NCBI GenBank assembly: GCA_045544415.1
Contig: JAZPYW010000108.1
Coordinates: 141 to 64,140, forward strand
DNA length: 64,000 nucleotides
Source: Erysipelotrichaceae bacterium
GTDB taxonomy: Bacteria > Bacillota_I > Bacilli_A > Erysipelotrichales > Erysipelotrichaceae
Direction of reading: 5' to 3'
Shown: one piece after another, positions 9,416-17,135 of the stretch
Layout: each line of letters begins with the position of its first letter
Numbering within the stretch: position 1 is the first letter of the stretch
The notes under the pieces: generated by a model
The model's database searches: none
What the model was told of the DNA's origin: nothing
Seen by the model: the letters and a program-made list of their open reading frames with translations, nothing else
Position numbers and translations under genes: made by a program

Positions 9416-10492
9416 CTAGTCTAATGTATCGAATACATTGAAGCCGAGATCCTTGAGGACATGGTCATAGGCTTCCATACTTTCGGAGAAGGTATAGCTC
9501 AGACGGTGCTCATACGGAGTATCTCCTTCATACCAGGTACCGAAGATCTGAGACTGTCCGTGCTTTGCGATGTTCGGTTCATGGGTGAATCCCTTGGATC
9601 CCCATTTTCCCTGATAGTGGATGACCTTATCGCCGATATAGAGCGTCATATCCTTGAAGGTGCAGGTACCGTCCTCGACATACGGGAGCTTGACCCAGTC
9701 TGCTTCTACGGTGACGGTATCGGAGATGACCGGCGTCTCTCCTTCAAGATAATAGATCGCCAAGGTCTTTCCGACGGAGTTCATCGAAGCGGATACGAAG
9801 ACGGATTCCTTTCTGCCGTCTTTCCGGATACCCATACCGGATACGGCAATATAGCCCATCGGTACGGAAGAGAATCCTCCGGCTACCTTCTTGAACGACA
9901 TGCGGTCGATCGATCCGAGACCGACGACCGGTCTTCCGTCTAAAGATCCGTAGAACGTGCTCGGCTGGAAGATCGTCGAAGAATTGAGATAGACCGACTG
10001 ATGATCATAGAAAGTCACCGGCCACGGATAGGCCTTCACTTCAAAGAAGTCTCCCTCTTTGATGGATACCTTATCGTCATCGAAGACGAATTCCACCTTC
10101 TTTTCCGCATCATTGGAGTCAAAGCCGTAACGGAGTTCTTCTCCTTCGAGCTTATGGTAATTATTGGTGATCGGATCACCTCTGAGTGCCAGTTCCTCAT
10201 GATGCAGGACACCCTTCTGATGATCGAGATAAGTATCTCCTGCCTCTAAGAGAGAACCGATACGGTACTTCCCGGTCGCTACATCGACATGACGGAAATA
10301 AGTGACCGGCTTTTTCGAAGTATCTCCATCCACATACATGGAACCGTAGGCATCGATCAGGCCCAGTTTCGGATCTTCATCAAAACCGTTCTGAAAGTAC
10401 TTCGGATAGACATCGATCAGATTGTCTTTCTTTCCTGCTTCGACCATCAGGACCTGTCCTGAGGTATTCGTAAAGGTAACTTTATTCGCCAT
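9416..10492 (-). CDS. Uncharacterised paralog family member P2 of 8
   Basis: 358 aa. [51 protein letters not shown] Shine-Dalgarno upstream of the ATG. Confidence 0.9.
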
Positions 10493-11519
10493 ATTTGTCC
10501 TCCTTGACTCTAAATCCCCTTTTCTTCAGATCATCTTCATACGCTTCCATATTCTCGGAGAACGTATTCCAGATCCTATGTTTATATGGGACATCTCCCT
10601 CATACCAGCAGCCGAAGATCTGCGACTGTCCGTGCCTCTCAAAGCGCGGTTTGGCGGTAAAGCCTTTCGCACCGCGATATCCTTTCACATGGAGGGTCTT
10701 TCCTCCAAACTTCCAGATATTGTCGACACAGACCATCGTTCCATCATCGACATACGGGAGTTTCTCCCATACACCTTCATTTGTGACTTCCCCGCTGATC
10801 ACCGGCTCTTCTCCTTCGAGCCAGTAGATCCCGAGGCCTTTTCCATTCTCGTGACAGCAGAGTCCGATGAACCATTCTCTCCGTCCGTCATCCCGTATCC
10901 CCGAGCAGTAGCTCGACAGATAGGAAGTCGCATTCTTCAGGATCTCCATCTCTTTTCCCTGAGGGGAGAAGATCCTGTCGATACAGGCGAGAAATTCGAT
11001 CGGTTCTCCTTCATAAGTCCCTTTCAGATGCACCGGCAGATGCATGAACGGGATGTTGTATTCCGAAGCCATGTGGCAGATGAGTCCGTACGGGAACCAT
11101 TCTCCTGTCACATCGAGAATGGAACCGTCTTTTCCTTCCTTCCAGGTACAGCCGTCTTCATTGTAGGTGAAGCACATCTCTCTTCCTTCGGTCGTATAGA
11201 TGCCGTAAGTAAGAGGATCTTCGCTCAATACACTGTACGGGATCGTCGGATCATCCTGAGCCATGTCTTCCCCGTGTACGCCTTCCTGCAGAGAGAAAGG
11301 TCCTTCTCCCAGACGTATGATGGCCGACCACCTCGAGGAGGTCTCATTCATATTGTGGAAGTAGTACAGCGGTTTTTCTTCGTTGCTTTTCAGCATGCCG
11401 CAGTTGTCGTGGCGGATGAGGCGCACGACATCCTCCGGAAAATCTTCCTTGAAACAGGAAGGGGTACTGCTGAAATCGTCATTGGTAAATCTACGGTATT
11501 CGATATGCAGATCGTTCAT
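10482..11519 (-). CDS. Uncharacterised paralog family member P3 of 8
   Basis: 345 aa. [43 protein letters not shown]. 11-nt overlap with P2. Confidence 0.9.
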   Translation of the reverse strand: MNDLHIEYRRFTNDDFSSTPSCFKEDFPEDVVRLIRHDNCGMLKSNEEKPLYYFHNMNETSSRWSAIIRLGEGPFSLQEGVHGEDMAQDDPTIPYSVLSEDPLTYGIYTTEGREMCFTYNEDGCTWKEGKDGSILDVTGEWFPYGLICHMASEYNIPFMHLPVHLKGTYEGEPIEFLACIDRIFSPQGKEMEILKNATSYLSSYCSGIRDDGRREWFIGLCCHENGKGLGIYWLEGEEPVISGEVTNEGVWEKLPYVDDGTMVCVDNIWKFGGKTLHVKGYRGAKGFTAKPRFERHGQSQIFGCWYEGDVPYKHRIWNTFSENMEAYEDDLKKRGFRVKEDKYGE

Positions 11520-12541
11520 TATTCCTCCACCTCAAAGCCGAGCGCTCTGAGTCTTTCCGGATAGGCATCCATATTCTCGCAGGTATGGAAATAGAGCTTA
11601 TGTCTGTATTCGATATCTCCTTCATACCAGGTGCCGTAGGTCTCGGACTGGCCGTGCTTCTCATAGCGCGGATACGGCGTAAAGCCCTTGGAGCCCCAGA
11701 GACCCTTCATATGTATCGTCTTCGGACCGATATGGAAGATCGCATCCTGATAGGCGCAGGTGCCGTCATCGACGTACGGCAGTTTCTTCCATACCGTTTC
11801 CATCTTCATGTCGTGGGTGAAGAGAGGTTCTTTCCCGTCGATATAGTAGAGACCGATGTTCGATCCGTCCGCATGGAGACAGATCAAATAGGTCTCCAGT
11901 CTTCCGTCTTCTCGGATCCCATGGCCATACGAGAGGATGTAGGAGAGATCGTCACCGATGTCTTTTCCTGCCTGAGGAAGATAGATGCGGTCATAGTTTC
12001 CCATACCGATGACCGGTCTTCCGTCGAGATATCCGCTCCAGATGCACGGCTGCATGAACTGGGAGAGCGTCGGGAAGATATCCGCATGATCGACGATCGC
12101 AAAAGGATACGGGATCCCCTTGAGATCCAGGAAATCTCCTTCTTTCCAGATGCAGCAGTTCTCATAGTGATCGATCGAGCACTTCTTCGTATGGGAAGCG
12201 ATGCGGTAGAGCACCGGATCTTCCGATACCGGATGATAGGCCTCTTCTATCGGTGTATCCTTCTGTGCCATCTCATCCATGTGCAGGGCCTCCTGCAGAC
12301 CGAAGATGCCGTCTCCCGGATAGAAGATCGAACCGAAACGGAACTTATCGGTATTCGCATGTCTCATGACCCATAGAGGTTTCTTCGCGGTATCTCCATA
12401 CGGAAAGATCATTCCGTAGGGGTCGACCATGGCGATACGGGCCTTTCCGTCGATCTCGTTGTCAAAGGCTGCCGGTACGCCGTCGATCATATCGTCCTTT
12501 CGGGAAGGACGGAATTCTAAATAAGTGCTTCGTTCCTTCAT
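11519..12541 (-). CDS. Uncharacterised paralog family member P4 of 8
   Basis: 340 aa. GIREDGRLE, LPYVDDGTC, KHGQSETYGTWYEGDIEYRH, ENMDAY. TAATG junction with P3. Confidence 0.9.
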   Translation of the reverse strand: MKERSTYLEFRPSRKDDMIDGVPAAFDNEIDGKARIAMVDPYGMIFPYGDTAKKPLWVMRHANTDKFRFGSIFYPGDGIFGLQEALHMDEMAQKDTPIEEAYHPVSEDPVLYRIASHTKKCSIDHYENCCIWKEGDFLDLKGIPYPFAIVDHADIFPTLSQFMQPCIWSGYLDGRPVIGMGNYDRIYLPQAGKDIGDDLSYILSYGHGIREDGRLETYLICLHADGSNIGLYYIDGKEPLFTHDMKMETVWKKLPYVDDGTCAYQDAIFHIGPKTIHMKGLWGSKGFTPYPRYEKHGQSETYGTWYEGDIEYRHKLYFHTCENMDAYPERLRALGFEVEE

Positions 12542-15685: not shown

Positions 15686-15686
15686 A

Positions 15687-17135
15687 TCAGAGCTCCTCTC
15701 CATTCGTTTCGATGACGTGTTTATACCAGTAGAAGGAATCCTTCTTGGAGCGGGCCATCGTGCCTGTTCCGTCGTCCTTCTTATCGACGTAGACGAAACC
15801 GTATCTCTTCTTCATCTCGCCGGTAGAAGCGGAGACGAGGTCGATGCAGCCCCAGGCCGTATAGGCGATGACATCAGCACCGTCGTCAATGGCCTTCTCC
15901 ATCTCTTCGATGTGTCTTCTGAGATAATCGATGCGGTATGGATCGTGGATGGAACCGTCTTCTTCAACAGTATCGACAGCACCTAAGCCGTTCTCTACCA
16001 CCATGATCGGTTTGCCGTAGCGGGAGTAGACCATATCGATGTAGGTACGCATGCCTTCCGGATCGATCTGCCAGCCCCATTCAGAAGCTTCCAGATACGG
16101 ATTGCGTACTCCGGAGATCATATTGCCGGCGCTCTTCGTCAGTTCCGGATCGGTCGCCGAACACATGGACATGTAGTAGGAGAAGGAATAGAAGTCTACG
16201 GTACCTTCTTTCAAGGTCTCCGCATCTTCTTCCTTCATCAGGACCGTTGCGTCATGTTCTTCCCAGAACTTGGCCGCAAACGGATTGTATTCGCCCTTCA
16301 TCTGCACATCGCCGCAGTAGAAGTCGTATACTTCGTTCTTATACCAGGCCGAATAGGCATCAAGCGGACGGCAGGAGTACGGATACGTCATGACTCCGGC
16401 GATCATACAGCCGAAACGGAATTCCGGATCGATCTTTCTTCCTTCGATGACCGTCTTTGCGGAAGCGACGAGCTGATTGTGCAGCGCCGTAAGACGTCTG
16501 CTCCAGGAGTCGGCATTTCCCTCTCCCGTCTTCATCACATCGAATACTTCCGATTCCGGCATCATGCCTAAAGAAAGCGTATCCCCCGATCCGAAGAGGG
16601 AGATATTGATCTCATTGAAGGTCAGCCAGTATTTTACCAGGCCTTTATATTCCTTCATGATGGTCGTCGTGTATTTTACGAAACAGTCGATAGTTCTGCG
16701 GTCTTCCCAGCCGTTCCACTTCTTCGTGAGTCCGTACGGGAACTCATAGTGGGACATGGTGACCAGCGGTTCGATGTTCAGTTCCTTGCATAATTCAAAT
16801 ACTTTGCGGTAATGATCGAGTCCTTTCTGATTCGGGACTTCATCATCTCCATTCGGGAAGATCCTCGTCCAGTTGATGGACATACGGTACATCTTGAAAC
16901 CCATCTCCGCAAAAAGACGGATGTCTTCTTCATAGCGTCCATAATGATCGATCCCGTCATGGGAAGGATAGCTGTATCCTTCTCTGATCTCCGGCGTAAA
17001 GATACGCGGTCTGTCTTTGGTACCGGAAGTGAAATGATCGGCACAGGATTCTCCCTTGCCGTCGAGGTTCCAGGCACCTTCACACTGATTGGAAGCAGTC
17101 GCACCGCCCCAGTAGAAACCTTTTGGAAAACTCAT
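15687..17135 (-). CDS. GH1 6-phospho-beta-glucosidase
   Basis: 482 aa. [31 protein letters not shown]. Second GH1 copy in the locus. Confidence 0.9.

Follow-up and report, generated by a model that had tools for sequence, protein, structure and literature searches.

Six tandem paralogs of an unannotated protein family in a β-glucoside phosphotransferase operon of an Erysipelotrichaceae bacterium: a candidate panel of accessory enzymes

Why would a bacterial sugar-uptake operon carry six consecutive copies of a gene that matches no annotated protein family? The question is raised by a stretch of 64,000 nucleotides from an Erysipelotrichaceae bacterium (the window; assembly GCA_045544415.1, contig JAZPYW010000108.1, positions 141 to 64,140 of the forward strand), in which two glycoside hydrolase family 1 (GH1) genes of a β-glucoside phosphotransferase system (PTS) operon flank a minus-strand, head-to-tail row of six full-length paralogs of 340–358 amino acids (aa), named P7 to P2. 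Judged by gene context, this family of cytoplasmic proteins, termed the P family here, serves gut Bacillota as a dedicated accessory of loci that import sugar conjugates, chiefly PTS/GH1 β-glucoside operons. The P proteins are tentatively read, with a likelihood a little better than even, as a panel of accessory enzymes, each of which would perform acid/base chemistry on the aglycone of a different class of plant glucoside 6-phosphate.

A sequence-only reading of this stretch had described an uninterrupted array of six paralogs flanked by two GH1 genes, which is borne out by full-length alignment and by Pfam matches of the flanking genes to GH1. The same reading had counted one further copy (six plus one); this part of the inventory fell short, as the window holds eight members, six in the array plus P1 and P8, and a search of the window for further copies found none beyond these. 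The eight genes are as follows, with L numbers designating related loci from other genomes and metagenomes and with orthologs given by protein identity.

14633–15685, minus strand: P7, 350 aa; orthologs of 71–81% identity in L002, L027, L028 and L030, with a ratio of nonsynonymous to synonymous substitution rates (dN/dS) of 0.10–0.14
13572–14636, minus strand: P6, 354 aa, the copy modelled with AlphaFold2; orthologs of 58–86% identity
12544–13575, minus strand: P5, 343 aa; orthologs of 67–76% identity in L028 and L029
11519–12541, minus strand: P4, 340 aa; ortholog of 68% identity in L028
10482–11519, minus strand: P3, 345 aa; orthologs of 65–73% identity in L001, L028, L029 and L030
9416–10492, minus strand: P2, 358 aa; nearest relatives of 60% identity (L029) and 54–55% identity (single-copy loci L006 and L007)
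6906–7970, minus strand: P1, seventh and most divergent paralog, 354 aa; relatives of 41–42% identity in the EIIBC–P–GH1 loci L022 and L023
20509–21519, minus strand: P8, eighth paralog, 336 aa, downstream of two haloacid dehalogenase (HAD) genes; orthologs beside HAD genes in L010, L027 and L030

The array spans 9416–15685 when P7 is taken to start at 15685. The upstream GH1 gene (GH1a) ends with TGA at 15689–15687, followed by a single t at 15686 and the ATG of P7 at 15685–15683 (TGAtATG, a 1-nt gap). The longest open reading frame (ORF) of P7 would start at 15703; the start at 15685 is likelier, because a good ribosome-binding site, GGAGAGGAG at 15700–15692, lies 6 nt upstream of it and because the orthologs are 348–353 aa long. 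P7 and P6 share an ATGA overlap (14633–14636), as do P6 and P5 (13572–13575); P5 and P4 are separated by 2 nt (12542–12543), P4 and P3 share base 11519 in TAATG, and P3 and P2 overlap by 11 nt (10482–10492). An 8-nt gap (9408–9415) precedes the second GH1 gene (GH1b), and a 3-nt gap (7971–7973) separates GH1b from P1. All eight of these junctions had been listed by the earlier reading, and a base-by-base check found each of them correct. A Shine-Dalgarno-like motif precedes every gene of the block, and the stop/start overlaps together with these motifs fit co-transcription and possible translational coupling, so that the block would presumably be made from one transcript. Internal promoters and terminators had been reported as not visible; a promoter/terminator scan likewise gave only weak sites in 9416–15703. 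Long plus-strand ORFs (263–380 aa) run antisense to the P genes at 10422–11564, 13653–14498 and 11585–12376; they mirror the coding frames of the array and give no sign of being real genes.

The eight paralogs are only distantly similar to each other, with 31–47% identity at the protein level and 46–60% at the nucleotide level. Synonymous differences between copies are saturated (proportion of differing synonymous sites, pS, 0.6–0.74) and the longest exact stretch common to copies is 36 nt, all of which excludes mis-assembly of repeats. In a neighbour-joining tree, every paralog of the window falls into its own clade with proteins of other genomes, and orthologs on independently assembled contigs are 57–86% identical. 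For ortholog pairs with unsaturated synonymous sites, dN/dS is 0.06–0.14, compared with 0.08–0.11 for GH1 and 0.08–0.20 for the PTS permease EIIBC. A full-length alignment of the eight paralogs contains 40 invariant columns, and none of the eight copies deviates at any of the 23 columns that a 56-sequence family alignment shows as invariant. By these sequence measures, the copies are anciently diverged and under purifying selection and none is a pseudogene, in line with their earlier description as full-length and diverged copies free of pseudogenisation. In another Erysipelotrichaceae metagenome-assembled genome (MAG), a P8-type gene (L026, 9929–10795) breaks off at 288 aa, and tblastn places a second fragment close by; the gene looks frameshifted or decaying, and pseudogenes of the family thus appear to exist elsewhere.

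The operon that contains the array runs, 5′ to 3′, from a promoter and leader through licT, EIIBC, a hairpin, GH1a, P7-P6-P5-P4-P3-P2, GH1b, P1 and EIIA to a HAD gene, and all genes from licT through this HAD gene are on the minus strand. The partners of the P genes are listed below.

18663–19475, minus strand: BglG/LicT-type transcription antiterminator; Pfam CAT_RBD and PRD (two stretches), best NCBIfam match LicT (E 5e-56)
17213–18616, minus strand: PTS EIIBC of the β-glucoside type; Pfam PTS_EIIB and PTS_EIIC, best NCBIfam match β-glucoside-specific PTS IIABC (E 4e-113)
15687–17135, minus strand: GH1a, 6-phospho-β-glucosidase-like; Pfam Glyco_hydro_1 (E 7e-123), the four best NCBIfam matches being 6-phospho-β-glucosidase models
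7974–9407, minus strand: GH1b, 6-phospho-β-glucosidase-like by Pfam and NCBIfam; 53% identical to GH1a
6385–6891, minus strand: PTS EIIA of the glucose type; Pfam PTS_EIIA_1, and NCBIfam
5555–6388, minus strand: Cof-type HAD-IIB sugar-phosphatase-like gene by Pfam and NCBIfam; last gene of the operon
19637–20479, plus strand: short-chain dehydrogenase (SDR); Pfam adh_short, orthologs of 47–73% identity in L002, L010, L027, L028, L030 and L033
22331–23173 and 21531–22334, minus strand: two Cof-type HAD-IIB phosphatase-like genes upstream of P8, by Pfam and NCBIfam

The locus thus combines an antiterminator with the CAT RNA-binding and PRD domains of β-glucoside operons (Pfam CAT_RBD and PRD, NCBIfam LicT) with the EIIBC, EIIA and GH1 6-phospho-β-glucosidase genes expected of such operons (Pfam, NCBIfam). 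The GH1a and GH1b proteins match Pfam Glyco_hydro_1 at E of about 1e-123 and 1e-129; their NCBIfam scores (544–596 bits) lie under the curated subfamily cut-offs (623–686), yet 6-phospho-β-glucosidase models are their best matches. EIIA and the closing HAD gene share an ATGA overlap. The SDR gene is convergent with P8, and SDR orthologs accompany the P array in relatives.

Three putative control elements were recognised in the minus-strand leader and body of the operon.

19588–19616, minus strand: sigma-70-like promoter, TTGACA–17 nt–TATCAT, upstream of the leader and the antiterminator gene; best match of the scan (11/12 positions)
19488–19574, minus strand: leader with a ribonucleic antiterminator (RAT)-like sequence, a long hairpin and a U-run, read from the sequence
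17166–17200, minus strand: strong terminator-like hairpin (15 pairs, followed by a T-run) in the space that separates EIIBC from GH1a; −27.8 kcal/mol, z = −4.2

In the leader, the RAT-like 33-mer GGGTTGTTACTCCTCGGGAGGCTTGTCCTAAAC (19574–19542), which we take to resemble the RAT consensus, overlaps the 5′ arm of a hairpin (19566–19498) that is followed by the U-run, and the fold has a free energy of −36.7 kcal/mol (z = −3.5 relative to shuffled sequences). An Rfam search of 5000–24000 gave no RAT match and a single chance snoRNA match, and a degenerate RAT pattern, whose spacing was wrong, matched nowhere, the site read by eye included. Between the hairpin at 17166–17200 and GH1a there is no space for a promoter, so that expression of the GH1a–P block would depend on transcriptional read-through. 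An EIIBC-downstream hairpin with a T-run occurs at the equivalent position in L002, L027, L028 and L030; the sequence is not conserved, but the position is, and for the latter reason this element probably sets the transporter:enzyme ratio. Over 5000–24000, the totals of promoter-like sites (14, versus 20.0 ± 3.8 in shuffled sequence) and of terminator-like sites (20, versus 14.9 ± 4.2) are within the range of shuffled sequence. A palindromic hairpin, AAAGGATATCCCCGGGGATATCCTTT (20479–20504), lies between the convergent SDR and P8 genes; it is listed as terminator-like on the plus strand and could serve both genes.

Comparison with other genomes indicates how closely the P family is tied to this type of operon. 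About 70 loci were collected by a one-genome-per-species scan, from JGI metagenomes and by single-protein look-ups. Those with a named source come from Erysipelotrichaceae MAGs (goat and buffalo rumen, roe-deer gut), Longicatena, Traorella, Breznakia, Agathobacter, Lachnospiraceae, Faecalibacterium, Streptococcaceae MAGs and a brushtail-possum metagenome; the cluster nearest P6 (86% identity) contains Erysipelotrichaceae MAG proteins. The usual arrangement of the relatives is BglG–EIIBC–P–GH1–EIIA, with P directly after the sugar importer. Where at least 3 kb is available on both sides (29 loci), GH1 and a Bgl-type EIIBC are each present in 23. In L009, L016, L019 and L024, P follows a Lac/Cel-type PTS with a PRD/Mga-type regulator, and among remote homologs one lies behind a ROK-regulated ABC sugar importer and another behind a TetR-regulated MFS transporter. 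A BglG–EIIBC–P arrangement, with or without EIIA, that has no GH1 gene within 3–10 kb is found in L042, L050, L057, L066, L067 and L074. A complete EIIA–BglG–EIIBC–GH1–P locus is also present in a MAG assigned outside Bacillota (L012, an 'uncultured Pelolinea sp.' record), a placement that could be due to horizontal transfer or to a binning error.

Several types of enzyme recur beside the P genes: Cof-type HAD, SDR, iron-containing alcohol dehydrogenase, HIBADH-like dehydrogenase, GFO/IDH/MocA oxidoreductase and 2-enoate-reductase-like flavoproteins, in addition to MATE and ABC exporters, which lie downstream of P in L050 and L056. In an Erysipelotrichaceae MAG (L018, 9071–10975), a Cof-type HAD (residues 25–277) and a P8-type domain are fused in frame in a protein of 634 aa; the two fusion partners are separate neighbours in the window (21531–22334 and 20509–21519). 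A different HAD fusion, a 573-aa ORF that joins a Cof-type HAD to a metallo-β-lactamase-fold domain, is located downstream of a P7-P6 pair and an SDR gene in L002 (7149–8870). The 2-enoate-reductase-like flavoproteins (Oxidored_FMN plus Pyr_redox_2, 625–649 aa) flank P genes in L020 (3190–12929), L025 (7921–9804) and L073 (7400–9349); three of them surround GH1–P–P in L020, and the one in L073 is directly 3′ of a remote homolog that itself lies behind an ABC sugar importer.

Copy number and gene order vary widely. Of the 64 related loci that contain a full-length copy, 53 have a longest run of a single P gene, six of two, three of three, one of four and one of five, these counts being lower bounds since many contigs are short; a run of six is seen in this window only. 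The earlier remark that six tandem copies are unusual thus holds, this being the longest run among the loci examined. The gene orders of four close relatives are given here.

L028: EIIBC–GH1a–P7–P6–P4–P5–P3–SDR–GH1b–EIIA–HAD–P2′
L027: HAD–P8–SDR–BglG–EIIBC–GH1a–P7–P6–P2′
L030: HAD–P8–SDR–BglG–EIIBC–P7–P6–P3–GH1b–P2′–GH1
L029: BglG–EIIBC–P5–P2–P3–P6–GH1a–EIIA–GFO

Genes of the P6, P2, P5 and P1 types are each found alone with their own transporter and GH1. Because subtypes occur alone and because content and order differ in close relatives, the subtypes are read as modules of long standing, each useful by itself, that came to be collected and rearranged.

The identity of the family was approached at the levels of sequence and structure. 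Pfam and NCBIfam searches of all eight paralogs (E up to 1) assigned no family and gave sub-threshold noise only (DUF4176 and DeoD, E above 0.06); Pfam likewise assigned no family to ten remote homologs, and a family profile, run at E up to 10, matched no PDB sequence. Among 5.8 billion clusters, a word-indexed search recovered 186 relatives, with any labels all 'hypothetical', and an exhaustive profile search of 1.84 billion representatives recovered 95 at E ≤ 0.001, of which 49 reached E ≤ 1e-30. As the family has only 186 matches in 5.8 billion clusters, the presence of eight members within 17 kb is far beyond chance.

An AlphaFold2 model of P6, built from the 56-sequence alignment, is almost all-β and was predicted with high scores (predicted local distance difference test, pLDDT, 94.6; predicted template-modelling score, pTM, 0.92). 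With this predicted model as a query, the top 16 Foldseek matches in the PDB all belong to the two-β-barrel hydratase/lyase/pericyclase group (probability 1.0, E 1e-6 to 2e-4, template-modelling (TM) score 0.39–0.50, about 10% identity). The significant matches are exclusively 25-phosphosteroid lyase, the Diels-Alderases CghA, Fsa2 and Phm7 with related pericyclases, and kievitone hydratase. By its modelled fold, though not by sequence family, the P family is thus a distant, unannotated branch of the two-β-barrel structural class. Other β-rich candidates were considered and rejected: aldose or glucose-6-phosphate 1-epimerases and phenolic acid decarboxylases are both absent from the Pfam and Foldseek matches. 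The idea of a phosphosteroid kinase/lyase pair, suggested by a DUF7064 protein beside an APH-type kinase in L071, was also dropped, as two profiles gave no similarity between this protein and the P family; the L071 DUF7064 protein has no PDB relative.

The pattern of conserved residues (P6 numbering) points to a candidate catalytic core and, separately, to residues specific to PTS-linked members. E143, D225, E229, Y246, W265, Y270, D273, T275, H291, W296, Y326, H328 and E336 make up this candidate core: in most of the remote homologs, whose operons are unrelated, these positions are unchanged or carry conservative substitutions. About 15 polar residues are invariant family-wide; D225 and E229 are invariant and W265, W296 and W319 conserved, and these five are mostly retained in the remote homologs too. 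In contrast, invariance or near-invariance of R79, Q94, R222, R306, H310 and Q312 is confined to the PTS-linked family, represented for R79 and R306 by the 56-sequence alignment; K299 is a further residue of the PTS clade. Among the six remote homologs with a visible gene context, R79 and R306 are both present in P0145, which is downstream of BglG–EIIBC, and both replaced in P0152 (ABC importer), P0155 (TetR), P0160 (MFS), P0170 (TonB/APH) and P0175 (acyl-CoA operon). Since these two arginines are kept in PTS-linked proteins and replaced in remote homologs that are not PTS-linked, they hint that the substrate carries a phosphate and that PTS-linked members may bind the sugar phosphate through R79 and R306.

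These features can be combined into a tentative scheme for the accessory-enzyme panel. β-Glucosides would induce the operon via LicT, and transcription would read through the hairpin after EIIBC. The PTS would import a range of plant glucosides as 6-phosphates, and each P protein would take a subset of these, catalysing hydration, elimination or isomerisation of the aglycone before, beside or after GH1 cleavage, with R79 and R306 of the PTS-linked clade holding the sugar phosphate. GH1a and GH1b would liberate glucose 6-phosphate, SDR (in other genomes, reductases and alcohol dehydrogenases) would process the aglycone, and HAD enzymes would dephosphorylate dead-end sugar phosphates. A co-induced enzyme panel had been one of two explanations proposed at the outset, and the comparative data, with their single-copy loci and variable sets, fit it.

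Several points weigh against this scheme. With a terminator before GH1a, how strongly the block is expressed, in itself and relative to the transporter, would depend on read-through. The structural matches are distant, with TM scores of at most 0.50 and about 10% identity, and come from a predicted model. The apparent link between R79/R306 and the PTS is drawn from six remote homologs, one of them PTS-linked and the other five not. Under strict criteria, the search for subtype-specific positions returned one position only, and this near-absence leaves the idea of one aglycone class per paralog without direct sequence support. The six complete loci with PTS and P genes and without GH1 would fit P proteins acting alone as well as a GH1 gene encoded elsewhere. 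To our knowledge, no member of the P family has been studied so far.

Alternative explanations differ chiefly in what the multiplicity of P genes would mean. The other explanation offered at the outset, a hetero-oligomer, taken here as a single assembly to which the six or eight paralogs contribute subunits at ratios fixed by translational coupling, would account for the tight stop/start overlaps in an apparently single transcription unit and for the adjacency of P7 and P6, in that order, in six loci. An obligate assembly would entail a fixed set of subunits in every genome that has the system, and what is found instead is a single copy in 53 of the 64 loci (a lower-bound count, as noted), P6-, P2-, P5- and P1-type genes alone with their own PTS and GH1, P7 without P6 in L048, and subsets as different as P7-P6-P4-P5-P3, P5-P2-P3-P6 and P7-P6-P3 in relatives. 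Because of these single-copy loci and the variable copy set and order, the modular panel is favoured, and an obligate hetero-oligomer is very unlikely. That the array is an assembly artefact of expanded or chimeric repeats, or a row of decaying duplicates, has negligible probability: the general risk attached to metagenome-derived contigs is all that speaks for it, whereas the copies share no more than 36 identical bases in a row at 46–60% nucleotide identity, every family-invariant residue is kept in all eight, orthologs are under purifying selection, and independent assemblies carry arrays of two to five copies, those of three, four and five copies being composed of matching gene types. The artefact that the sequence-only reading had proposed to look for by comparing array length in relatives is thereby discounted.

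Two further alternatives concern what a single P protein does. As the modelled fold comprises two lipocalin-like barrels, P proteins might be non-enzymatic carriers that pass hydrophobic or toxic aglycones released by GH1 to exporters, with many copies providing many specificities; the MATE and ABC exporters that follow P in L050 and L056 would suit this role, and Lactobacillus acidophilus externalises aglycones after PTS and GH1 action (PMC5698550). Carriers are nonetheless unlikely, as the invariant polar residues, with E143, D225, E229, H291, H328 and E336 mostly retained remotely (with some Glu/Asp and Asp/Asn exchanges), suggest catalysis because they persist in homologs from unrelated metabolic operons, every protein with a characterised function in the top fold matches is an enzyme, and the HAD fusion and adjacency point to a phosphorylated small-molecule substrate. 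Alternatively, P proteins might cleave the imported glucoside themselves, releasing sugar phosphate and aglycone by a non-glycosidase reaction, for example elimination at an aglycone carbon, in the case of glucosides that are poor substrates for GH1. The GH1-less but otherwise complete BglG–EIIBC–P operons, in which P occupies the usual slot of the hydrolase, the basic residues conserved specifically in PTS-linked members, and the closest structural match, a lyase whose reaction frees phosphate bound to a tertiary carbon, would be in keeping with such a reaction. By analogy, the P family would then be a new enzyme class acting directly on β-glucoside 6-phosphates, with an arginine-held sugar phosphate and carbocation or acid/base cleavage or rearrangement on the aglycone side, comparable to 25-phosphosteroid lyase except that the leaving group would be the sugar phosphate. 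This is quite unlikely, given that GH1 stands beside P in about 80% of complete loci and twice in the window, that GH1 could be encoded elsewhere in the genomes of the GH1-less loci, and that we know of no glycoside-cleaving enzyme with the two-β-barrel fold. If this long shot were true, it would amount to glycosidase-independent deglycosylation, diversified into aglycone-specific subtypes in herbivore-gut bacteria.

What becomes of plant glycosides, among them drugs, toxins and flavour precursors, is decided by bacteria of the gut and rumen. On the textbook PTS route, phosphorylating uptake is followed by GH1 action, and in dozens of genomes a P gene sits between or beside these two steps and is constrained like the hydrolase. 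If P proteins are enzymes, as the favoured panel of accessory enzymes supposes, the family would add a missing step to β-glucoside catabolism and would constitute a natural collection of variants built on a cofactor-free hydratase/lyase scaffold, of a type that already attracts interest in biocatalysis. The array would then be a ready comparison set for specificity determinants.

Elsewhere in the window, rpoB, rpoC and cysS lie 16–35 kb away, which indicates that the window is chromosomal. Directly 3′ of the operon, a protein of 488 aa that contains Schlafen AlbA_2 and HATPase_c_4 domains is encoded at 3958–5424 (minus strand), with its own promoter-like site at 5474–5446. Pfam gave no match at E ≤ 1e-8 for either of two minus-strand ORFs, 27812–29803 (663 aa) and 60319–61905 (528 aa), each of which is overlapped by a long ORF on the opposite strand.

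With respect to fold, the P family is comparable to the two-β-barrel enzymes, represented by CrtC, kievitone hydratase (7a0t), 25-phosphosteroid lyase (9fzn, 9g4c, 9g2i) and CghA/Fsa2/Phm7 (6kbc, 7e5t, 7e5u). Like these, P proteins are of about 330–380 aa and are predicted to be nearly all-β in two barrel-like halves, with no sign of a cofactor-binding domain. In CrtC, catalysis takes place in a cavity that lies between the barrels, with an Asp as the catalytic residue and Trp residues that stabilise the cation (D268, W110, W283 and W285 in the Rubrivivax enzyme; PMC12402844). The P family also has invariant acidic and aromatic residues, a resemblance at the level of residue type. The known two-β-barrel enzymes differ in their substrates, which are carotenoids, prenylated isoflavonoids, steroids or polyketides. 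A search of the available papers found none linking AttH-type proteins with the PTS or with glucosides, and no two-β-barrel enzyme known in a sugar PTS operon.

With respect to the operon, the closest counterparts are the classical β-glucoside PTS operons, Escherichia coli bglGFB and Bacillus subtilis licT/bglPH. The shared elements are the LicT/BglG antiterminator, the β-glucoside EIIBC and EIIA, the GH1 6-phospho-β-glucosidases and, tentatively, the putative RAT-like leader with its terminator. In the classical operons the transporter gene leads straight to the hydrolase gene, whereas here and in the relatives one to six P genes directly follow the transporter gene or the hydrolase gene, and HAD and SDR genes accompany them. 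Cof-type HAD phosphatases such as E. coli YigL relieve sugar-phosphate stress, and the three Cof-type HAD-IIB genes of this locus, the recurrence of HAD in relatives and the HAD–P fusion of L018 resemble such relief systems; we know of no described link between these phosphatases and a two-barrel protein. The plant-glucoside loci of L. acidophilus comprise a regulator, a PTS, GH1 and one unrelated hypothetical protein, with no P gene listed (PMC5698550). Overall, the frame of the operon is that of a classical LicT/BglG β-glucoside PTS and the fold class is a known one; what appears to be new is the P family inserted into this frame, the proposed use of the fold in sugar-conjugate catabolism, and a set of eight members under one transporter.

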